From NCBI RefSeq assembly GCF_013122565.1, contig NZ_CP053258.1: DNA of 64,000 bases; one strand, 5' to 3'. Of the stretch, positions 2,450 through 43,947 are shown in pieces. Under the pieces are notes generated by a model. The model was not told where the DNA came from and did not search any database. It saw only the letters and a program-made list of their open reading frames with translations. The position numbers and the translations under genes were made by a program. The stretch's first letter is position 1, and every line of letters begins with the position of its first letter. The stretch is from Escherichia coli (GTDB lineage: Bacteria > Pseudomonadota > Gammaproteobacteria > Enterobacterales > Enterobacteriaceae).

Positions 2450-4099
2450 GTGAACTGGCGCAGAATCGTCTGGCTATTGGCGTTGGTTACTCAGCCAACG
2501 CTTGCGGAGGAGACGCCGTTACAACTGGCGCTGCGGGGCGCGCAGCACGATCAACTGTATCGGCTGTCGTCATCAGGCGTGACCAAAGTCTCGGCATTAC
2601 CTGACACGCTCACCACGCCGTTAGGGAGTTTGTGGAAACTGTATGTTTACGCCTGGCTGGAGGATACCCATCAACCGGAGCAGCCCTACCAGTGTCGCGG
2701 AAACTCCCCGGAAGAGGTTTATTGTTGTCAGGCTGGGGAGAGCATAACGCGCGATACCGCGCTGGTACGTTCCTGTGGGCTCTATTTTGCGCCGCAGCGG
2801 TTGCATATTGGCGCAGATGTGTGGGGGCAATACTGGCAACAGCGTCAGGCACCTGCGTGGTTAGCGTCTCTTACTACGCTGAAGCCAGAAACCTCGGTAA
2901 CGGTTAAATCGCTGCTTGATTCATTAGCGACGTTACCTGCGCAAAACAAAGCTCAGGAAGTCTTACTGGATGTGGTGCTGGACGAGGCGAAAATCGGTGT
3001 CGCATCCATGCTCGGTAGTCGGGTACGGGTGAAAACCTGGAGCTGGTTTGCCGATGATAAACAGGAAATCCGTCAGGGTGGTTTTGCTGGCTGGTTAACC
3101 GATGGTACACCGCTGTGGGTTACTGGCAGTGGCACCAGCAAAACGGTACTAACCCGTTATGCGACGGTGCTTAATCGGGTTTTGCCAGTGCCGACGCAGG
3201 TTGCCAGTGGGCAATGTGTAGAGGTGGAGCTGTTTGCCCGCTATCCGCTGAAGAAAATCACAGCGGAAAAGAGTACGACGGCAGTAAAACCCGGCGTACT
3301 TAATGGGCGCTATCGTGTGACATTTGCCAATGGTAACCACATTACGTTTGTCAGCCACGGTGAGACGACCTTACTGAGCGAAAAGGGCAAACTGAAATTG
3401 CAGTCGCATCTCGATCGTGAAGAGTATGTTGCCAGAGTTCTGGATCGCGAGGCGAAAAGTACGCCACCTGAGGCAGCGAAAGCCATGACCGTGGCGATAC
3501 GCACTTTTTTACAGCAAAACGCCAATCGGGAAGGCGATTGCCTGACCATCCCTGACAGCAGCGCCACGCAGCGTGTTTCGGCTTCGCCAGCGACCACGGG
3601 GGCGCGAACGATGACCGCCTGGACGCAGGATCTCATCTATGCGGGCGATCCGGTTCATTATCACGGCAGTCGCGCTAGCGAAGGGACGCTTTCCTGGCGG
3701 CAAGCCACGGCCCAGGCGGGGCAGGGAGAGCGTTACGACCAGATACTCGCGTTTGCTTATCCCGACAACAGCCTTAGCCGCTGGGGAGCGCCACGCTCAA
3801 CCTGCCAGTTATTACCCAAAGCGAAAGCCTGGCTGGCGAAAAAAATGCCGCAGTGGCGGCGTATATTACAAGGCGAGACAGGGTACAACGAACCAGACGT
3901 GTTTGCGGTCTGTCGTTTAGTCTCAGGTTTCCCCTATACCGATCGGCAGCAGAAACGGCTGTTTATTCGTAACTTCTTTACGCTTCAGGATCGGCTGGAT
4001 TTAACCCATGAGTATCTGCACCTGGCCTTTGATGGTTATCCCACCGGGCTTGATGAGAACTATATCGAAACGCTGACCCGACAATTATTAATGGACTAA
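2450..4099 (+). CDS. yfaQ: uncharacterized protein of the yfaA-T-S-Q-P (mag-like) operon, 549 aa
   Basis: 549-aa ORF, GTG start overlapping yfaS stop, N-terminal signal-like segment; size and position match yfaQ. Confidence 0.8.
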   Translation: MNWRRIVWLLALVTQPTLAEETPLQLALRGAQHDQLYRLSSSGVTKVSALPDTLTTPLGSLWKLYVYAWLEDTHQPEQPYQCRGNSPEEVYCCQAGESITRDTALVRSCGLYFAPQRLHIGADVWGQYWQQRQAPAWLASLTTLKPETSVTVKSLLDSLATLPAQNKAQEVLLDVVLDEAKIGVASMLGSRVRVKTWSWFADDKQEIRQGGFAGWLTDGTPLWVTGSGTSKTVLTRYATVLNRVLPVPTQVASGQCVEVELFARYPLKKITAEKSTTAVKPGVLNGRYRVTFANGNHITFVSHGETTLLSEKGKLKLQSHLDREEYVARVLDREAKSTPPEAAKAMTVAIRTFLQQNANREGDCLTIPDSSATQRVSASPATTGARTMTAWTQDLIYAGDPVHYHGSRASEGTLSWRQATAQAGQGERYDQILAFAYPDNSLSRWGAPRSTCQLLPKAKAWLAKKMPQWRRILQGETGYNEPDVFAVCRLVSGFPYTDRQQKRLFIRNFFTLQDRLDLTHEYLHLAFDGYPTGLDENYIETLTRQLLMD

Positions 4100-4103
4100 T
4101 GCT

Positions 4104-4880
4104 ATGCGAAAGATTTTTCTTCCGTTGTTACTGGTGGCGCTTTCGCCTGTCGCTCACAGTGAAGGTGTGCAGGAAGTCGAGATTGATGCACCGCTCTCTG
4201 GCTGGCATCCGGCAGAGGGCGAAGATGCCAGTTTTTCACAATCGATCAATTACCCGGCGTCGTCCGTCAACATGGCAGATGATCAAAATATCTCAGCGCA
4301 GATCCGCGGCAAAATAAAAAATTATGCTGCGGCGGGTAAGGTTCAGCAGGGCCGGCTGGTGATCAACGGTGCCAGTATGCCGCAGAGAATTGAATCCGAT
4401 GGTTCATTTGCACGCCCTTATATTTTCACTGAAGGCAGCAACAGCGTGCAGGTCATCAGCCCGGATGGGCAAAGCCGACAAAAAATGCAGTTTTACTCAA
4501 CGCCGGGTACAGGAACGATTCGTGCACGTTTACGGCTGGTTCTCTCGTGGGATACGGACAATACCGATCTCGATCTCCATGTTGTCACGCCCGATGGCGA
4601 ACACGCCTGGTACGGTAACACCGTGCTGAAAAACAGTGGTGCACTGGATATGGATGTCACGACGGGGTACGGACCCGAGATTTTCGCCATGCCAGCACCA
4701 GTTCACGGGCGCTATCAGGTGTATATCAACTACTATGGTGGGCGCAGCGAAACGGAATTAACCACCGCCCAACTGACGCTGATCACCGATGAAGGATCGG
4801 TCAATGAGAAACAGGAAACATTTATTGTACCGATGCGTAATGCTGGCGAGCTGACGCTGGTGAAAAGTTTTGACTGGTGA
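4104..4880 (+). CDS. yfaP: uncharacterized exported protein of the yfaS operon, 258 aa
   Basis: 258-aa ORF with N-terminal signal peptide (MRKIFLPLLLVALSPVAHS), 4 nt after yfaQ. Confidence 0.8.
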   Translation: MRKIFLPLLLVALSPVAHSEGVQEVEIDAPLSGWHPAEGEDASFSQSINYPASSVNMADDQNISAQIRGKIKNYAAAGKVQQGRLVINGASMPQRIESDGSFARPYIFTEGSNSVQVISPDGQSRQKMQFYSTPGTGTIRARLRLVLSWDTDNTDLDLHVVTPDGEHAWYGNTVLKNSGALDMDVTTGYGPEIFAMPAPVHGRYQVYINYYGGRSETELTTAQLTLITDEGSVNEKQETFIVPMRNAGELTLVKSFDW

Positions 4881-4932
4881 TCCATCCCTTCACACAACCT
4901 GGCGCTCTCTTTTTTCAGATAAGACTGCTGGG

Positions 4933-4978
4933 CGATCTGCCGACGCCAGGATATAACCATTAACAAGCGTCGGCAGAT
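4933..4978 (+). terminator. 12-bp perfect inverted repeat (atctgccgacgc ... gcgtcggcagat) downstream of yfaP, candidate terminator hairpin
   Basis: inverted repeat read directly; weak T-run after it. Confidence 0.4.
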
Positions 4979-5151
4979 TGGTCATTTCTTATTCGTACTG
5001 AGAACTGTCCATTTACTCTGGCTTTCCTGGTTAAGGCAATGGTTTCCAAGCGATACGCATTATTGCAATGGTGACAGAACATTGCGGTAACACGCTTTTA
5101 CCGCTACCTTAACCACACTCCATCGGTCACCTGAGGCGGAGCTTCGCCCCT

Positions 5152-8001
5152 TTGAAATACCTTGCTTCTTTTCGTACAACCCTGAAAGCCTCGCGCTACA
5201 TGTTCAGAGCATTGGCGTTAGTGCTCTGGCTGTTGATTGCTTTTTCATCCGTTTTTTACATCGTTAATGCGTTACATCAGCGAGAATCGGAAATTCGTCA
5301 GGAATTTAATCTGAGTTCCGATCAGGCTCAGCGCTTTATTCAACGCACCTCTGATGTGATGAAAGAGCTGAAGTACATCGCTGAAAATCGCTTATCGGTA
5401 GAAAACGGTGTGCTTTCCCCGCGTGGACGAGAAACGCAGGCAGATGTGCCTGCGTTTGAACCGCTGTTTGCCGACTCCGATTGTTCCGCAATGAGTAACA
5501 CCTGGCGAGGTTCTCTGGAGTCATTGGCGTGGTTTATGCGCTACTGGCGCGATAATTTTTCTGCGGCTTACGATCTCAACCGGGTATTTTTAATCGGCAG
5601 CGATAACCTCTGCATGGCCAATTTCGGTCTGCGTGATATGCCAGTGGAACGCGATACCGCGTTGAAAGCTTTGCATGAACGCATCAATAAATATCGAAAT
5701 GCACCACAAGATGATAGCGGCAGTAACCTCTACTGGATCAGCGAAGGTCCGCGCCCTGGCGTCGGGTATTTTTACGCGTTGACGCCAGTTTATCTGGCGA
5801 ACCGGTTGCAGGCGCTTTTGGGTGTCGAGCAAACCATCCGGATGGAGAACTTTTTCTTACCGGGTACGTTGCCGATGGGGGTTACCATTCTTGATGAAAA
5901 TGGTCATACCCTGATTTCGCTTACCGGACCAGAAAGCAAAATTAAGGGCGATCCTCGCTGGATGCAGGAACGCTCCTGGTTTGGCTATACGGAAGGGTTC
6001 CGGGAGCTGGTGCTGAAGAAAAATCTGCCACCCTCATCGCTAAGCATCGTGTATTCGGTGCCGGTTGATAAGGTGCTGGAACGCATTCGCATGTTGATCC
6101 TTAACGCAATTTTGCTGAATGTGCTTGCCGGAGCTGCATTGTTTACTCTCGCGCGGATGTACGAGCGACGTATTTTCATTCCGGCGGAAAGCGACGCCCT
6201 GCGACTGGAAGAACATGAGCAGTTCAATCGCAAGATTGTCGCCTCCGCGCCAGTGGGTATCTGCATTTTGCGTACCGCTGATGGCGTCAATATTTTAAGT
6301 AACGAACTGGCGCATACCTATCTCAATATGCTTACGCATGAGGACCGCCAACGACTGACGCAAATTATCTGTGGGCAGCAGGTCAATTTTGTTGATGTCC
6401 TGACCAGCAACAATACCAATCTGCAAATCAGCTTCGTCCATTCGCGCTATCGTAATGAAAACGTGGCCATTTGTGTGCTGGTGGATGTTTCTTCGCGCGT
6501 GAAGATGGAAGAGTCGTTGCAGGAGATGGCACAAGCAGCGGAACAGGCGAGCCAGTCAAAATCGATGTTCCTTGCCACCGTCAGTCATGAGCTGCGAACG
6601 CCGCTGTATGGCATTATCGGTAACCTGGATCTTTTGCAAACCAAAGAGTTACCGAAAGGCGTCGATCGTCTGGTGACGGCAATGAACAACTCTTCCAGCC
6701 TGTTGTTGAAAATTATCAGCGATATTCTCGATTTCTCGAAGATTGAATCGGAACAGTTGAAGATCGAACCGCGTGAGTTTTCACCGCGTGAAGTGATGAA
6801 CCACATCACCGCCAACTATTTACCGCTGGTGGTACGCAAGCAGTTAGGCTTGTACTGCTTTATTGAACCGGATGTGCCAGTGGCCTTAAATGGCGACCCG
6901 ATGCGTTTACAGCAGGTCATCTCCAACCTGTTGAGTAACGCCATAAAATTCACCGATACCGGCTGTATAGTTTTGCATGTCCGCGCTGATGGCGATTATC
7001 TCTCTATCCGTGTTCGCGATACCGGCGTGGGGATCCCGGCGAAAGAAGTGGTGCGCTTGTTTGATCCCTTCTTCCAGGTCGGAACGGGCGTACAGCGAAA
7101 CTTCCAGGGGACCGGTCTGGGTCTGGCGATTTGTGAAAAACTGATCAGCATGATGGACGGCGACATCTCGGTAGATTCAGAACCGGGAATGGGCAGCCAG
7201 TTTACCGTGCGTATTCCGTTGTACGGCGCTCAGTACCCGCAGAAAAAAGGCGTGGAAGGGTTGAGTGGTAAACGCTGCTGGCTGGCGGTCCGCAATGCGT
7301 CACTCTGTCAGTTCCTGGAAACCAGTTTGCAGCGCAGCGGCATCGTCGTAACAACATACGAAGGGCAGGAACCGACTCCCGAAGATGTGTTAATCACTGA
7401 CGAGGTAGTGAGTAAAAAATGGCAGGGCAGAGCGGTAGTGACCTTCTGTCGTCGACATATTGGTATTCCGCTGGAGAAAGCGCCAGGGGAGTGGGTACAC
7501 AGTGTGGCTGCTCCGCATGAGCTACCGGCATTGTTGGCGCGTATTTATTTGATCGAGATGGAGAGCGACGATCCTGCTAACGCTCTGCCGTCGACGGACA
7601 AAGCGGTCAGCGATAATGACGATATGATGTTTCTGGTCGTGGATGATCATCCGATTAACCGACGTCTGCTGGCAGATCAGTTGGGATCGTTGGGCTATCA
7701 ATGTAAAACCGCGAATGATGGCGTCGATGCGCTTAATGTACTTAGCAAGAATCATATTGATATCGTGCTTAGCGACGTCAACATGCCAAATATGGATGGT
7801 TACCGCTTGACGCAACGCATTCGTCAGTTGGGACTGACGTTGCCGGTAATCGGAGTAACTGCTAATGCGTTGGCTGAAGAGAAGCAGCGGTGTCTGGAGT
7901 CCGGTATGGACAGCTGCCTGTCGAAGCCGGTAACGCTGGATGTGATAAAACAGACGCTGACGGTATATGCCGAGAGGGTCAGGAAATCGCGGGAATCGTA
8001 G
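5152..8001 (+). CDS. rcsC: hybrid sensor histidine kinase RcsC (949 aa)
   Basis: 949-aa ORF starting MKYLASFRTTLK (TTG start), HisKA (SHELRTPL), HATPase and C-terminal receiver domain (VVDDHPINRRL). Confidence 0.95.
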   Translation: MKYLASFRTTLKASRYMFRALALVLWLLIAFSSVFYIVNALHQRESEIRQEFNLSSDQAQRFIQRTSDVMKELKYIAENRLSVENGVLSPRGRETQADVPAFEPLFADSDCSAMSNTWRGSLESLAWFMRYWRDNFSAAYDLNRVFLIGSDNLCMANFGLRDMPVERDTALKALHERINKYRNAPQDDSGSNLYWISEGPRPGVGYFYALTPVYLANRLQALLGVEQTIRMENFFLPGTLPMGVTILDENGHTLISLTGPESKIKGDPRWMQERSWFGYTEGFRELVLKKNLPPSSLSIVYSVPVDKVLERIRMLILNAILLNVLAGAALFTLARMYERRIFIPAESDALRLEEHEQFNRKIVASAPVGICILRTADGVNILSNELAHTYLNMLTHEDRQRLTQIICGQQVNFVDVLTSNNTNLQISFVHSRYRNENVAICVLVDVSSRVKMEESLQEMAQAAEQASQSKSMFLATVSHELRTPLYGIIGNLDLLQTKELPKGVDRLVTAMNNSSSLLLKIISDILDFSKIESEQLKIEPREFSPREVMNHITANYLPLVVRKQLGLYCFIEPDVPVALNGDPMRLQQVISNLLSNAIKFTDTGCIVLHVRADGDYLSIRVRDTGVGIPAKEVVRLFDPFFQVGTGVQRNFQGTGLGLAICEKLISMMDGDISVDSEPGMGSQFTVRIPLYGAQYPQKKGVEGLSGKRCWLAVRNASLCQFLETSLQRSGIVVTTYEGQEPTPEDVLITDEVVSKKWQGRAVVTFCRRHIGIPLEKAPGEWVHSVAAPHELPALLARIYLIEMESDDPANALPSTDKAVSDNDDMMFLVVDDHPINRRLLADQLGSLGYQCKTANDGVDALNVLSKNHIDIVLSDVNMPNMDGYRLTQRIRQLGLTLPVIGVTANALAEEKQRCLESGMDSCLSKPVTLDVIKQTLTVYAERVRKSRES

Positions 8002-8878: not shown

Positions 8879-11551
8879 CTACAGCAAGCTCTTGACATAA
8901 CTGTCAATGTCGCTGATGTATTTTTCTATTCCTGGAACATCCTTCTCACGAATCAGATGTTCCAGCGTTTCACATAACTGCTTGCCGGGTACCAGATTTA
9001 GCATGGCAAATACGCCTTTAAGACGATGAGCCGTTTGGGCTAACGCAGCAAAGTCACTGGTTGCTGCTTCAGTATACAGCCTCTTAACATCATCCGGTAC
9101 TGTGTCTACAAAGAGCGCATAATAGCCGCTGGCATGGAGTTGCGCATTTTCATCTCCGCCCAGAGGCGATTCTGTCACCTCTTCCTGCGCCAGTTGCACT
9201 TCAATTAATTGTAAGACCGCTTCCTGCATAGCGTTGCTCATATTGAAGTTGACGCACAATTGACCAGGCCCAATTTCCCGTACGCCAGACTCATCATCGC
9301 TTAAAAGCAAGCCAGAGGCAGTAAGATTAGACGGATTATCCGTTAAAAAGATATCATAATCTTGACTAATTAATCTTTCATCGGGTGTGATACAGGTTGC
9401 ACCCCAATTTTCTAACTGGCGAGTGACAATATTCCGAATTTCTGCCGAAGTAACATCCACCATTACGCAGACATCATCCAGTAAACGCTCTTCTTCCTCT
9501 TCAACTTCCGGGTCAGCTGCGAGCATTTTGATATGCACAGAGTAGCGTGTACCAAGCCCATCCCGCGTTTTGATGTTTAAATGACCGCCCAGTTTACGCG
9601 CCAGTTGATCGCTCAGCCAGAATGCCAGCGGGTCCGCCTTGCCATAGCGATCGTTTTGGGTCTGGTTGATAAACGGGAAGTGCAAATTATCCATTTCATG
9701 AATACTTACGCCTTCTCCCGTGTCCAGAATGCGGAACGTCAGGCGGTCTTCGGAGGACTCATCCTGATCAACCTCAAGGGTGATTTTTCCCAATTGCGTT
9801 GAGGTCACGGCATATTGCATCAGTAGCAGCAAAATACGTCGTAAGGCATCGCGATCGCCGCGGCGCATATCGTGTGCTTTCAGATGATTGTTAATCAGCA
9901 GTTGCAGACCTTTACGCTTGATGGCAGGCAACACTGAAGGCACAACTTCATCAATTAAATCCTGCACGGAGAACAGCACCGTCTCACTTTTCCAGCTATC
10001 GTCCGCAAGCATGTTCGCTAACTGTATTTCATCGACCAGCCGCACCAGCACATCTGCCTGATTCGCCAGTTGTTTGCTTTCCGGGGCGTTGAGTTTAGCC
10101 GCGCTCTCCGCCAGGGACTGTGCGGGTTCTTTCAGCGCATCGCCAATGTTTTTCATAAAGGTCATCCGCCCCTGCTGGTTTTTCTCATACAGACGCTGCG
10201 CCTGCTTGAGTTTCTTGTTTACCAGCACTTCGCGATCCTGATCGCGAATAATGAAAATTTGTGTGCGCGGCGCAACCTGGCTGCGGAACATGCGGATCTC
10301 ATACAGCTCGTTATTGATCGTCGCCTGAATAATCCCCTGATGCTGTTCCGCCATGGTGGTGATGTTTTGCAGATTCAAATGCGGCAGCAAATGATCGGCA
10401 ATTTTGTTACTTATGACAGTGCGGTTCGATTCCTGATCGTGAACCAGCAGGCCGAGCGGCAGCAGTGAGACTATCTCTTCATTAATTGCCCGTAAAATGC
10501 GCAATTCGTTATTGACCGCCGTGTTGGGTAGACTTTCTGTACTGCGACTGGAGAAATGGCGGAATGTGGTATAGCCAAATAACGCCAGCGCCAGCAAACC
10601 GATGTTCAGCAGCAGTGGCAGCAGAATGTTTTGCAACGTATCCAGCAATAAGGTGCCATAAGGAACCTGCCAGACCAGGCGCATATCGGTAGAGTTGAGT
10701 GCCGAGGAGATTTCAATCTTCGTACTGTTAAAGTGGATACTGACGCTATCCGTCCCTTCTTTCTCATTATCATTGTTTCCCGTTGCCGTCGCGTCTGGCT
10801 CAAGGCGGAAACTGTCCAGCGGCATACCCGGTGGGATCAAATCATTAATCGGCAGATCAAAAGCCACGACCGTTGCCAGATGTCCCGGCTGGTTGAACGT
10901 GGTACGCAAGGTAAAGTAATGACCGTTCTGCCAGGCCAGGCGGCGCATGTTAGAAAAACTTTCGCGTTCATCGAGGGCGTTGGCCTGTTGCAACATCTCT
11001 GCACGACGTGAATCAACAATGTCACTGACGGTCGATTCTTTAAATCCGGAGGTGAGATCTTTGAGGGGCAGGGTTGAGATCAGCACCAGACTGTTATCCT
11101 GACCATTCAGGTAATACATCGACCACGGTACATTTTCTGCGCCCCACAATGTATCCAGATAAGTGGACATCCGCTGAGTCATCTCAAGCGTTGAGTTGTC
11201 GTGAGAGCCAAAGATTAACGCTTCCGTTTTGCGACGCGGTTTTTCCAGATAGTAGACATCCTGTTTCAGGCGCGTCTCTTGTAAACCTTCGCCGGAGGAG
11301 GGGGAGGTCGTCGCGGCAATGTTGTCGTAGATCTGCCAGGTCACGTAACGCCAGGTATCGACGCGCTTTTGGATTGCGTGGGTAATGTCGACAATCTGGT
11401 AACTTTTATCTTTCAGCCAGGCGTTAACGGCGCTTTGTACCATTACACCCATCGTCACCAGTAACACAATGATCAACAGTAAAAAGAAGCGGGTAATGCT
11501 CCCCGGTAGGAGTGAAAAGCGGGTCGTGGCCGTTGTCTCTTTCTGACGCAT
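8879..11551 (-). CDS. rcsD: phosphotransfer intermediate RcsD (YojN), 890 aa
   Basis: 890-aa ORF immediately upstream of rcsB, N-terminal membrane segment, HPt-like C-terminus. Confidence 0.93.
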   Translation of the reverse strand: MRQKETTATTRFSLLPGSITRFFLLLIIVLLVTMGVMVQSAVNAWLKDKSYQIVDITHAIQKRVDTWRYVTWQIYDNIAATTSPSSGEGLQETRLKQDVYYLEKPRRKTEALIFGSHDNSTLEMTQRMSTYLDTLWGAENVPWSMYYLNGQDNSLVLISTLPLKDLTSGFKESTVSDIVDSRRAEMLQQANALDERESFSNMRRLAWQNGHYFTLRTTFNQPGHLATVVAFDLPINDLIPPGMPLDSFRLEPDATATGNNDNEKEGTDSVSIHFNSTKIEISSALNSTDMRLVWQVPYGTLLLDTLQNILLPLLLNIGLLALALFGYTTFRHFSSRSTESLPNTAVNNELRILRAINEEIVSLLPLGLLVHDQESNRTVISNKIADHLLPHLNLQNITTMAEQHQGIIQATINNELYEIRMFRSQVAPRTQIFIIRDQDREVLVNKKLKQAQRLYEKNQQGRMTFMKNIGDALKEPAQSLAESAAKLNAPESKQLANQADVLVRLVDEIQLANMLADDSWKSETVLFSVQDLIDEVVPSVLPAIKRKGLQLLINNHLKAHDMRRGDRDALRRILLLLMQYAVTSTQLGKITLEVDQDESSEDRLTFRILDTGEGVSIHEMDNLHFPFINQTQNDRYGKADPLAFWLSDQLARKLGGHLNIKTRDGLGTRYSVHIKMLAADPEVEEEEERLLDDVCVMVDVTSAEIRNIVTRQLENWGATCITPDERLISQDYDIFLTDNPSNLTASGLLLSDDESGVREIGPGQLCVNFNMSNAMQEAVLQLIEVQLAQEEVTESPLGGDENAQLHASGYYALFVDTVPDDVKRLYTEAATSDFAALAQTAHRLKGVFAMLNLVPGKQLCETLEHLIREKDVPGIEKYISDIDSYVKSLL

Positions 11552-39377: not shown

Positions 39378-40385
39378 ATGAGTCTGGATATCAACCAGAT
39401 TGCTCTGCACCAGCTTATCAAGCGTGATGAGCAGAACCTTGAGCTGGTGTTGCGCGATTCATTGCTGGAACCGACAGAAACCGTCGTTGAGATGGTGGCA
39501 GAACTGCATCGGGTCTATAGCGCCAAAAATAAAGCTTACGGCTTGTTTAGCGAAGAGAGTGAACTGGCGCAGACGCTGCGCTTACAGCGTCAGGGCGAAG
39601 AGGACTTTCTGGCATTTAGCCGCGCGGCAACCGGTCGCCTGCGTGACGAATTAGCGAAATATCCTTTTGCTGACGGTGGATTCGTGCTGTTTTGCCACTA
39701 CCGTTATCTGGCGGTGGAGTATCTGCTGGTGGCAGTCCTGAGCAACCTGAGCAGTATGCGCGTTAACGAAAATCTCGACATCAACCCAACCCATTATCTT
39801 GATATCAATCATGCGGATATTGTTGCGCGTATCGATTTAACCGAATGGGAAACCAATCCAGAGTCGACCCGCTATCTCACTTTCCTGAAAGGGCGAGTAG
39901 GGCGCAAAGTGGCGGATTTCTTTATGGATTTCCTCGGGGCCAGCGAAGGGTTAAACGCGAAAGCGCAAAACCGTGGGCTGTTGCAAGCGGTTGATGATTT
40001 CACTGCCGAAGCACAACTGGATAAAGCAGAGCGACAGAACGTGCGCCAGCAGGTTTATAGCTACTGTAATGAGCAGCTGCAGGCAGGCGAAGAGATTGAA
40101 CTGGAGTCGCTGTCGAAAGAGCTGGCAGGCGTCAGCGAAGTGAGCTTCACGGAGTTTGCGGCTGAAAAAGGCTACGAACTGGAAGAGAGCTTCCCGGCAG
40201 ACCGTAGCACACTGCGTCAGTTGACGAAGTTTGCCGGTAGCGGCGGTGGCTTGACTATTAACTTTGATGCGATGCTGTTAGGTGAACGCATCTTCTGGGA
40301 TCCGGCGACCGATACCCTGACCATTAAAGGCACGCCGCCGAATTTGCGCGACCAATTGCAGCGCCGGACGTCTGGTGGGAACTAA
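39378..40385 (+). CDS. yejK: nucleoid-associated protein YejK (NdpA), 335 aa
   Basis: 335-aa [22 protein letters not shown]. Confidence 0.94.
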
Positions 40386-40765
40386 ATCTCCAACGCGAAT
40401 GTTTCTTTTCGGAGAAACAGTTGCGGGATAATCACAATTCTTGTCAATCAGTTAGTGAGATGACTTGCTGATTGACCTTTCATTCGAAAATGTTTTCTCT
40501 GTTATTATACTTAGTGTTACTGAAAATATTATTCTCTTATCCCCTTTATTCGATAATAAATCGGTCTGGTCACTATTTCCGCCGTTTTTTGTGAGCTGTA
40601 ACACTGGAAAAATCATTCTGTTTAATTATATTGAGTTTACTTGGCGTTATATGTTGTTATTTGCTTTGACTATATAAAATGCAAATGTATTCTTAATGTC
40701 AATATTATTGTCGTTATGTTTGACTCATTATATTAATCGTATGAATAGTTTTAAGGATTCACCGC

Positions 40766-41338
40766 ATGGAGCAAGAAAATCCTGAAGATAGAAAGTGTTG
40801 TCGACCGAAAAAAACGTTCTCTTTAACCAGAAAATTACTGGTATGTTTTATCTTTACCCTCATTGTATTCAGTGGTTGTTTATTTGTCGTTATGAACACG
40901 GTCATTCATAACACCAGCACTGACAGCTTTTGCCTGGGTTGTCATGAAATGAAAGACAACATCCTTACCGAGAGTTTCAAAAAATCCATTCATGGCAGTA
41001 ATCGTACTGGCGTGAAAGTCGCTTGTGCCGATTGCCATATTCCTGATGAATTTGTCCCTAAGATGATCAGAAAAGCCCACGCCGTTAAAGAGGTTTGGGG
41101 GCATATGACAGGCGTAATTGATACGGCCGATAAATTCGATGCACATCGTGGCGAAATGGCAAAAGCGGAATGGGCAAGAATGAAAGCAAACAATTCGCAG
41201 GAATGCAGAGACTGCCACGATATTTCTAAATTACAGAAAAAATTTATGGCGCCGTTCCATGAGGCTTCTCTTAAAGAAGGGAAAACATGCATTGATTGTC
41301 ATGCCGGCATTGCACATAAATTACCAGCAGTTCATTAG
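40766..41338 (+). CDS. NapC/NirT/CymA-family membrane-anchored tetraheme cytochrome c (putative quinol dehydrogenase), 190 aa; NapC paralog
   Basis: N-terminal TM helix (LLVCFIFTLIVFSGCLFVV), four CxxCH (CLGCH, CADCH, CRDCH, CIDCH); shares blocks VPKMIRK, NNSQECR-CH, TCIDCH-GIAHKLP with the napC in this window. Confidence 0.85.
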   Translation: MEQENPEDRKCCRPKKTFSLTRKLLVCFIFTLIVFSGCLFVVMNTVIHNTSTDSFCLGCHEMKDNILTESFKKSIHGSNRTGVKVACADCHIPDEFVPKMIRKAHAVKEVWGHMTGVIDTADKFDAHRGEMAKAEWARMKANNSQECRDCHDISKLQKKFMAPFHEASLKEGKTCIDCHAGIAHKLPAVH

Positions 41339-41431
41339 TCATTAATACATGAATGTCATGTCTGTCTGGTTTCAAATAAAAACAAGAAGGGTTTCATGTT
41401 GATTTAAGTTTTTATGTAAAAGGACCATGTT

Positions 41432-43072
41432 ATGAGGAAACTAAAAAGGGGATTCTTATTGGCTGGGGTATTAACGGCACTTTCTCTAAGCGCTTATGCT
41501 GACAGAAATATGAATAAGATCCCGCATATCAATCTGTCGAATCCATCCGTCGAACCAGTTAGTGAGAGAATAATCCAAACAGATATTGTTGTTATTGGCG
41601 GTGGGCTTTCTGGCATGTCCGCAGGGTTGACTGCAGTACAGGGCGGAGCCAAAGTTGTTATTTTTGAAAAACTACCAAGCCTTGGAGGGGCAGGCGTTTA
41701 TCCTGAAGGCAGTTTAGGCATTGGCACCCTTATGCAAAAAAAAGAGGGGAAAGGTGCCACGCTGAATCAAGCCTTTGGTAAGGCGATCGATTTCCATCAC
41801 TGGCGAGCCAATGCTAGTGCATTGCACGCATTAATGAAAAACTCAGGCGAAACCATTGATTGGGTTGCCAGTAATGGCGTTGAGTTTACGACCTTAAAAA
41901 CCACCATTTATCCTCAGTCAGATTCATTATGGACCTGGCATATGTATAAGCATAATGGTGCATCTGTTACTAAAAGCTTTTACAAGAAGATCCTTGATGG
42001 AGGTGGGCAAATCTACACCGAAACTCCTGTTAAGAAGATTCTTCGCGACAAACAAAGCGGTGATGTCGTTGGCGTCGAAGCGGTTAATAGCGTAACAGGG
42101 GAAAAAATCATTGCCTATGGTAAGGGTGTGATTGTGGCGACCGGTGGTTTTGCCAACAACCGTGACATGATTGAAAAATACATCACCGATGTGAATCAGA
42201 AAAACATGGTGCCGGTCAAACTACGTGGCCCCCTGATTGATGGACGCGAAGGCGATGGTATCAAAATGGGGCAAGACATTGGCGCTGATACTGCCGGGAT
42301 GCAAACCATTGCTGGCAATAGCCCATATGTCGATCAAGACCCTCCTATCCGTCAGTTTAATGGCGCGGATTACCAAAAACAGGCCAGAACGTCATTAAGC
42401 CAGCCATTCCTGTGGATTAACCGACAAGGCGAGCGTTTCTTTGATGAGTCACTCGGTTCCAGTTTTACCCTCGTTTATAACGCTATCACCATGAATGGCG
42501 GAGTCATGTATTCTGTCTGGGATGATGCAATGCGCCAGAAGATGGTTAACGAAGGGCCGGTTACACCGTTTAACGCCATCGTGTTGCCTGGGCAGCCGAT
42601 GAAGGCGCTGGATCAGGCGATCGAAATCGGCATGAAAGAAGGGTGGTTATTTAAAGGTGAAACGTTGGACGATCTGGCAAAACAGATCAATGTTCCTGCA
42701 GACAATCTGAAAGCGACGATTGCGAAAGTAAACAAGTATACGGATGAAGGTTTCGATCCTGACTGGGGGCGCAAGAAAGAGCATCTGTTTAAATTTCAGG
42801 ATAAAGGACCGTATTACGCCGTGAAAGGTATTCGGGCTTATTTCCTGACGCTGGGTGGTTTGAAAATGAACAGCGATCTGCAGGTCTACGATACCAATGA
42901 GAAGATTATCCCAGGTCTGTATGTTGTCGGGCAGGATATGGGCGGTCTGTATGACAGCTCCTATGATTTGGTACTTGAAGGATCGGCTTCTGGCTTTGCG
43001 TTGACGTCGGGACGTATGGCAGCGAAACATATTATAAGCACCAGAGTGCAGGCACAGGGAGGAGGCAAATGA
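41432..43072 (+). CDS. exported FAD-dependent flavoprotein of the fumarate-reductase/succinate-dehydrogenase flavoprotein (FAD_binding_2) type, 546 aa; substrate unknown
   Basis: N-terminal signal peptide MRKLKRGFLLAGVLTALSLSAYA; dinucleotide fold DIVVIGGGLSGMSAGLTA...EKLPSLGGAG; C-terminal GLYVVGQDMGG; no CxxCH. Confidence 0.8.
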   Translation: MRKLKRGFLLAGVLTALSLSAYADRNMNKIPHINLSNPSVEPVSERIIQTDIVVIGGGLSGMSAGLTAVQGGAKVVIFEKLPSLGGAGVYPEGSLGIGTLMQKKEGKGATLNQAFGKAIDFHHWRANASALHALMKNSGETIDWVASNGVEFTTLKTTIYPQSDSLWTWHMYKHNGASVTKSFYKKILDGGGQIYTETPVKKILRDKQSGDVVGVEAVNSVTGEKIIAYGKGVIVATGGFANNRDMIEKYITDVNQKNMVPVKLRGPLIDGREGDGIKMGQDIGADTAGMQTIAGNSPYVDQDPPIRQFNGADYQKQARTSLSQPFLWINRQGERFFDESLGSSFTLVYNAITMNGGVMYSVWDDAMRQKMVNEGPVTPFNAIVLPGQPMKALDQAIEIGMKEGWLFKGETLDDLAKQINVPADNLKATIAKVNKYTDEGFDPDWGRKKEHLFKFQDKGPYYAVKGIRAYFLTLGGLKMNSDLQVYDTNEKIIPGLYVVGQDMGGLYDSSYDLVLEGSASGFALTSGRMAAKHIISTRVQAQGGGK

Positions 43073-43479
43073 GTAAGCTATTGAAGAACATTGTCACAAT
43101 CATTCTTGCTGGCGTAATGTGCACCGTTATCGGTATGGTTTCTGCCAGTGCACAAGAGATTGTCGGCATGAAAATGCACAAGACCATTGGTCTGGAATGT
43201 AATAACTGCCATGTTGATGATGTTAAAGCCAACAAGAATATGACGCCAACGTGCGTTAGCTGCCATGCGCCTGGTGAGCGTTATTATCATGGTAAGAAGG
43301 ATTCAGAAGGTAACTCAGTGTTAAAAGAGTATCCGGAGTCGGGTAAAACACGAGTTGCGTCTTTCCATGACTCTCATGGCGGGGAAATTCGCTGTACGGT
43401 ATGCCATACGTCACATGAGAAGGAACCACAGCCACTCTATTGCAACAACTGCCATCAGTTTGATGTGAAGATTAAGTAG
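43069..43479 (+). CDS. small periplasmic tetraheme cytochrome c, 136 aa
   Basis: signal peptide, four CxxCH (CNNCH, CVSCH, CTVCH, CNNCH) in ~110 mature residues; ATGA overlap with upstream flavoprotein gene. Confidence 0.85.
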   Translation: MSKLLKNIVTIILAGVMCTVIGMVSASAQEIVGMKMHKTIGLECNNCHVDDVKANKNMTPTCVSCHAPGERYYHGKKDSEGNSVLKEYPESGKTRVASFHDSHGGEIRCTVCHTSHEKEPQPLYCNNCHQFDVKIK

Positions 43480-43501
43480 TGAAGGTATTTGTCAGTCGCT
43501 G

Positions 43502-43540
43502 AAAAAGAAAACGGCCCGTAAAGGCCGTTTTCTTTTGTTC
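43502..43540. terminator. intrinsic terminator (aaacggcccgtaaaggccgttt + T-run) between the island operon and convergent rplY
   Basis: GC hairpin flanked by gaaaaagaaa and ttcttttg. Confidence 0.85.
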
Positions 43541-43554
43541 AACTTATTCAGCAA

Positions 43555-43947
<393 letters not shown>

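Follow-up and report, generated by a model that had tools for sequence, protein, structure and literature searches.

Does the close spacing of yfaP and rcsC in an Escherichia coli genome record the loss of the ato genes that lie between them in K-12, or does it preserve a site that these genes never occupied? We analysed this junction in a stretch of 64,000 nucleotides of E. coli DNA, referred to below as the window, with positions counted from its first letter. Three genes of the yfaA-yfaT-yfaS-yfaQ-yfaP (alpha-2-macroglobulin) cluster were placed on its plus strand by the list of open reading frames and by tblastn with K-12 proteins: the end of yfaS at 20-2449, yfaQ at 2450-4099 and yfaP, the final gene of the cluster, at 4104-4880 (stop codon TGA at 4878-4880; 99.2% amino acid identity to K-12 YfaP by tblastn). 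The gene for the Rcs phosphorelay sensor kinase, rcsC, follows on the same strand at 5152-8001, with a TTG start, 949 codons' worth of protein (949 aa) and 99.5% amino acid identity to K-12 by tblastn; rcsB and rcsD lie downstream of it on the minus strand, again according to the reading frames and tblastn.

The spacer between yfaP and rcsC thus covers 4881-5151, is 271 bp long and non-coding, and contains no ato gene. An earlier note, made from the sequence alone, had placed the end of yfaP at 4880 and the start of rcsC at 5152 with only non-coding DNA between them, and both the reading frames and tblastn agree with it. The gene order in K-12 that the note gave is also the annotated one: in MG1655 (2,312,000-2,334,000) the order is rcsC - atoS atoC atoD atoA atoE atoB - yfaP, with 7,490 bp separating rcsC from yfaP. 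The size given for the ato locus, ~6.5 kb, was too small, since it measures ~7.25 kb in K-12 (7,251 bp from the start of atoS to the end of atoB). When the window was aligned to K-12 and to other E. coli, ato was found to be absent here, and yfaP in K-12 is not adjacent to rcsC. Across the 64-kb window tblastn retrieved no ato genes, only paralogous matches to kinase and receiver domains at 29-35% identity. The window is therefore non-K-12, as had been proposed, both by the absence of ato at this site and by point differences (98.1% identity in yfaP).

The junction is shared by many strains. When window positions 4400-5700 were compared by megablast with 5,426 complete E. coli genomes, 1,537 were contiguous over the whole query, while the rest break at ~4881 and 5073-5076, which bears out the reading of this site as a presence/absence junction. 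It is annotated in the same form by RefSeq in E. coli CFSAN061769, where the spacer is 274 bp. The spacer of the window lies in the range of ~271-276 bp that defines this ato-negative haplotype, and in a multiple alignment it is homologous throughout to those of other ato-negative genomes.

An atoS relic in the spacer

Four segments can be told apart in the spacer. The first 25 bp, at 4881-4905, have no match to the K-12 yfaP-atoB spacer by blastn or local alignment. They are followed at 4906-4985 by a relic of atoS on the minus strand, corresponding to K-12 codons ~23-49 and recognised by blastn, alignments and translation. The next segment (4986-5075, minus strand) corresponds in pairwise and multiple alignments to a degenerate atoS start region together with the promoter or rcsC-atoS intergenic DNA, at about 65-70% identity to K-12. 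The last, 5076-5151, is the region upstream of rcsC on the plus strand and is 100% identical to K-12. By blastn, homology to K-12 DNA stops at 4881 on the yfaP side and resumes from 5029 on the rcsC side. Between these points, 4906-4973 matches K-12 atoS nucleotides ~79-145 at 78% identity over 68 bp (E = 8e-9 in a blastn search of a 22-kb K-12 segment, in which the matched stretch has coordinates 8188-8122). The copy of the relic in E. whittamii matches K-12 atoS as well, at 74% over 70 bp (E = 2e-6).

We then aligned five sequences, namely those of the window, E. coli CFSAN061769, E. whittamii, Escherichia sp. MOD1-EC7003 and K-12. In this alignment 4906-5075 matches, collinearly and over its full length, the 5' end of K-12 atoS and the rcsC-atoS intergenic DNA, and a block of 20 nt is identical in all five. 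Relative to K-12 the relic has gaps of 52 bp (roughly atoS codons 6-22) and 11 bp, and the ATG of atoS is gone. Its orientation, on the minus strand and divergent from rcsC, is that of K-12 atoS, and it lies on the same side. Translated on the minus strand it reads MTNLPTLVNGYILASADRPAVLSEKRERQVV up to a stop codon, to be compared with MVIVPTLTIGYIVETEGRSAVLSEKEKKLSA for residues 23-53 of K-12 AtoS. The frame shared with AtoS is PTL..GYI..R.AVLSEK, and 14 of the first 25 residues of the relic equal those of AtoS 23-47, a stretch too short for independent statistics. The relic is short altogether, with ~80 bp of clear homology diverged by 22%, so the original breakpoints can be placed only approximately. 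Its flanks are very different in this respect: the final 31 bp of yfaP and the stretch 5076-5151 are 100% identical to K-12, and 200-bp bins further out have identities of 96-100%, for the most part 97.5% or higher.

A repeat search found no direct repeats, IS elements or REP elements flanking the junction, only short matches at chance level, and a scan of 4600-5400 against Rfam (E <= 1) returned no RNA family. A small hairpin, GCGGTAACACGCTTTTACCGC, is present at 5084-5104, in the stretch of 76 bp directly before rcsC, which hardly varies across Escherichia. It was scored as terminator-like on the minus strand by a consensus scan, and it may be part of the rcsC leader or promoter.

Because 4906-5075, some 170 bp and all that is left of the locus here, consists of the decayed 5' end of atoS and its upstream region, the present state of the spacer is one of loss. 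On this comparison the window very probably represents the allele without ato in an old presence/absence polymorphism of E. coli, and this allele would have arisen by deletion of ato. The ancestor would have carried atoSCDAEB between rcsC and yfaP as K-12 does. A deletion of ~7.2 kb would have removed roughly everything from atoS codon 49 through atoB, together with the atoB/yfaP terminator, leaving of atoS no more than its promoter region and initial ~50 codons. This leftover would then have decayed through small further deletions and about 22-30% substitutions.

Two other accounts of the short spacer were weighed against deletion. That it is an artefact of assembly or collapse has next to no probability, given that the same junction occurs in the 1,537 complete genomes and that a contig from an independent run (SRR11451224, from Logan) is 100% identical to the window over 3,988 bp. 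The other account reverses the direction of change: the arrangement without ato would be ancestral, and K-12-type strains would have gained atoSCDAEB by insertion, as a metabolic islet. The sharp breakpoints with 100% identity in both flanks would suit such an event, as would the mobility of ato genes elsewhere, which are carried on the LAA island (PMC10562709), and the yfaP homologues of Superficieibacter, Citrobacter youngae and Enterobacillus, which have neither ato nor rcsC within 10 kb. However, a site that was never occupied should hold no atoS sequence, and this one holds a piece of atoS coding and upstream DNA in the correct place and orientation; insertion into an empty site is thereby largely refuted. 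The K-12 ato locus also has no integrase, tRNA or flanking repeats, and we regard the ancestral absence of ato as very improbable. In the same connection, ato was considered as a genomic island of which the window would show the empty site, and this was rejected: there is no mobility gene, tRNA or direct repeat, and the site contains atoS sequence. Deletion is the reading followed below, and the junction is called a scar.

Distribution and age of the scar

Within E. coli the scar is essentially one sequence, as judged with the spacers of the window and of E. whittamii as queries; the same two queries found no intermediate variants of the relic in E. coli. At least 80% of window positions 4878-5078 is covered in 1,536 genomes, and 1,530 genomes match at 95-99% identity. 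Carriers include O157:H7, O55:H7, W, O111 and O145. The scar is found in ~28% of complete RefSeq genomes, a share that is too high because O157:H7 and other STEC make up a disproportionate part of the complete genomes. The 5' sequence of atoS in its K-12 form was found in 3,929 genomes, in every one of them at 95% identity or more. The scar-positive (~1,537) and atoS-positive genomes together exceed the total by about 40, so that some strains, from this arithmetic and from the literature, appear to have the scar plus atoS elsewhere.

In agreement with this, atoSC, atoDAB and atoE have been located on module I of the LAA pathogenicity island in LEE-negative STEC (PMC10562709, PMC9729726, PMC13340028). 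In that module ato lies away from the rcsC site, whereas the window holds no LAA or ato sequence. The prevalence of ato differs by >50% between phylogroups A and B1 (PMC9602453), and AtoS/AtoC are listed as missing from S. dysenteriae, S. flexneri and S. boydii (PMC9496106, Table 1). That ato varies between strains is thus already published, and the window is a case of this known accessory behaviour at the native site.

The scar of the window is not quite the common one. It shares with the scar of O157:H7, O55:H7 and W the adjacency of yfaP and rcsC, the relic and the internal gaps, but over the 201 bp of 4878-5078 it differs by a 3-bp deletion in a T-run and four substitutions (96.6% identity). 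The best identity of the window to any complete genome is 99.1% at the junction and 98.5% at 30-42 kb, with different genomes as top matches for the two stretches, and the only exact match found to its sequence is the SRR11451224 contig. It looks as if the source lineage is poorly represented among complete genomes. The exact RcsC protein was likewise found in a single sequencing run only. No IS elements, which would have pointed to Shigella, were found among the large open reading frames of the window.

Other rearrangements were seen in the course of the comparison. In E. coli fEC.1, yfaP has been cut to 699 bp by an internal deletion (locus 1705-2403), with an otherwise normal scar junction. 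In E. coli TUM1223 (NZ_CP135722.1, 4866040-4868441) a strain-specific deletion fuses a truncated atoE to napG; it takes atoDA, atoSC, rcsC, rcsB, rcsD and ompC through napA, and leaves a natural E. coli without the Rcs system. Elsewhere in the window, at 40386-43900, two extra genes stand on the plus strand between yejK and rplY/yejH. One (40766-41338) encodes a NapC/NirT-family tetrahaem cytochrome of 190 aa (TIGR02161, E = 2.7e-61, under the curated cut-off), the other (41432-43072) a flavocytochrome c-like FAD reductase of 546 aa (NF053717, E = 8.8e-93, also under the curated cut-off). The best-matching complete E. coli genomes lose their match at window position 40385, which marks 40386-43900 as a variable accessory respiratory module; no defence-system match was obtained within it.

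To place the scar in time we turned to the other species of the genus. Species-representative genomes were scanned with YfaP, which gave three informative loci; that of E. albertii was left out, as its contig ends 64 bp past yfaP. In E. whittamii, yfaP adjoins rcsC across a spacer of 276 bp that shows the same scar and internal gaps. Compared with the window, the E. whittamii genes are 91-92% identical in yfaQ and yfaP and 88% identical in rcsC, and the spacer is 95% identical in the relic core (4906-4984), 83% in 4985-5075 and 56% in 4881-4905. The scar (95% and 83%) and the flanking genes (88-92%) have thus diverged to a similar extent between the two species, which is what a deletion at least about as old as the split from E. 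whittamii should produce.

The ato-positive state at this site is also old. E. coli E69 has a complete ato locus with 93.5% identity to K-12, and AtoS is present in E. ruysiae and E. marmotae. A divergent AtoS allele (P0120) with 88% amino acid identity to K-12 and an identical N-terminus occurs at the native site. The contigs that carry it have partly decayed ato operons in various states, with atoC split, atoD or atoB truncated, or atoE missing; in one of them atoB abuts gyrA, and the whole yfaA-yfaP cluster is absent. To judge from these loci, the ato-positive and scar alleles both predate, or have crossed, the species boundaries of Escherichia. Escherichia sp. MOD1-EC7003 represents a further state. 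There, ato is likewise gone between yfaP and rcsC, but the breakpoints are other ones and the spacer is 755 bp (locus 10781-11535): ~300 bp of the atoS 5' end, ~96% identical to K-12, is joined to ~150 bp of the atoB 3' end, and REP-like DNA follows yfaP. By these sequences it is an independent deletion of ato, and ato has been lost more than once in Escherichia. The atoB piece is 78% identical to K-12, a possible sign that a second, more distant ato allele exists in Escherichia.

The relic differs from K-12 atoS by 22-30% and the flanks differ by 0-2%, with an abrupt change at 4881 and at 5075/5076. This could mean that the scar came from another Escherichia lineage, or from a xenologous ato, and entered B1/E-type E. 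coli by homologous recombination within yfaP and rcsC. That the scar hardly varies among ~1,536 E. coli genomes of unrelated serotypes would agree with such an introgression, and divergent ato does occur at this locus, as in the atoB piece of MOD1-EC7003 (78%) and the AtoS allele at 88%. However, neutral decay alone could yield roughly 20% divergence, by a rough reckoning from the 88-92% identity of the flanks, and no donor-like sequence came to light: the search for a living atoS nearer to the relic, which covered 580 AtoS homologues, found none, and among the matches listed all were from Escherichia with K-12-like N-termini, the 88% allele included. The lack of intermediate relic variants in E. 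coli also counts against it. Altogether, we consider introgression from outside rather unlikely. The 22-30% divergence of the relic can be neutral decay since a deletion that predates the split of E. coli and E. whittamii, as roughly estimated from the divergence of the flanks. The near-invariance of the scar within E. coli in turn suggests that recombination in the conserved flanks has spread it fairly recently, and it fits such a spread better than simple vertical persistence.

A hairpin in the relic as a candidate terminator

The 12-bp perfect inverted repeat that the earlier note had seen at 4933-4978 is real, and its measured span of 4935-4978 is close to that one. Its arms, ATCTGCCGACGC (4935-4946) and GCGTCGGCAGAT (4967-4978), are complementary at 12 of 12 positions and 20 nt apart. 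Of 20,000 mononucleotide shuffles of the 271-bp sequence, only 8 gave a perfect inverted repeat of 12 bp with its arms at most 40 nt apart. When the plus strand was folded as RNA, the arms extended to a stem of 17 pairs with -29.7 kcal/mol (z = -5.05), and none of 200 shuffles was as stable. The predicted stem pairs 4929-4946 with 4967-4984 around a loop of ~20 nt and is immediately followed by a U-rich run, TTTCTTATT (4985-4993, T at 7 of 9 positions), so that hairpin and run together occupy 4929-4993 on the plus strand. The inverted repeat lies within the atoS relic and does not represent the signature of a recombination site.

Three distinct variants of the scar and its hairpin were found in total. 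The common E. coli haplotype has the same hairpin at -32.8 kcal/mol with a longer run, TTTCTTATTTTT, relative to which the T-run of the window is 3 bp shorter. The hairpin of E. whittamii is weaker (-22.5 kcal/mol), with two unpaired positions and no compensatory change. At the corresponding position K-12 atoS shows no more than a weak quasi-palindrome. Within the variable part of the spacer, 4881-5075, the hairpin-bearing 4906-4984 has changed least between E. coli and E. whittamii.

The position of the hairpin raises the question of how transcripts of the yfa cluster end. In K-12 the atoB-yfaP spacer contains a strong bidirectional terminator, with A-tract, hairpin and T-tract, beyond which lies the convergent atoB; all of this is gone in the window. 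In the scar allele the K-12 terminator is missing and the yfa cluster is directed straight towards rcsC, which lies on the same strand; the relic hairpin with its U-run at 4929-4993 is the sole terminator-like structure between yfaP and rcsC. It shares with intrinsic terminators such as that of K-12 atoB/yfaP a GC-rich stem, a U-rich run directly after it and a location just downstream of the stop codon. Its loop of ~20 nt, against about 3-8 nt in typical intrinsic terminators, and its stem of 17 bp are, however, atypical. A consensus scan of 4700-5300 that accepts terminator loops of 3-8 nt did not call the hairpin of the inverted repeat; it reported two terminator-like sites only, the first within rcsC and the second in its conserved leader. 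The same scan found no sigma-70-like promoter in 4700-5300.

We tentatively suggest that the relic hairpin might end yfaP transcripts before rcsC, as a candidate replacement for the deleted terminator. A broader version of this proposal is, in our opinion, rather unlikely. In it, the atoS stub would have been exapted: its quasi-palindrome would have become the perfect 12-bp (17-pair) hairpin, with the U-run supplied by the junction of an internal deletion, and in all ato-negative Escherichia the product would act as a terminator or insulator between the yfa operon and rcsC, whose kinase responds to envelope stress.

Expected consequences of the loss

The role of the ato genes in the use of acetoacetate and short-chain fatty acids goes back to Pauli and Overath (1972) and Jenkins and Nunn (1987), as they are cited in PMC9602453. 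With these genes absent from the rcsC-yfaP site, the strain would be expected not to grow on acetoacetate, butyrate or valerate by way of AtoDA, AtoE and AtoB, and to have no AtoSC signalling, unless a copy is present elsewhere in its genome.

Taken together, the junction is mainly a strain marker: it identifies the strain as non-K-12 and as one of a sizeable minority of E. coli without ato at the native site. What the scar adds is that it speaks for loss rather than gain, that it is shared with E. whittamii and that independent losses have occurred in the genus. Such multiple independent losses make ato a repeatedly dispensable locus. If the relic does act as a terminator, it would be a small, neat case of the reuse of pseudogene DNA.
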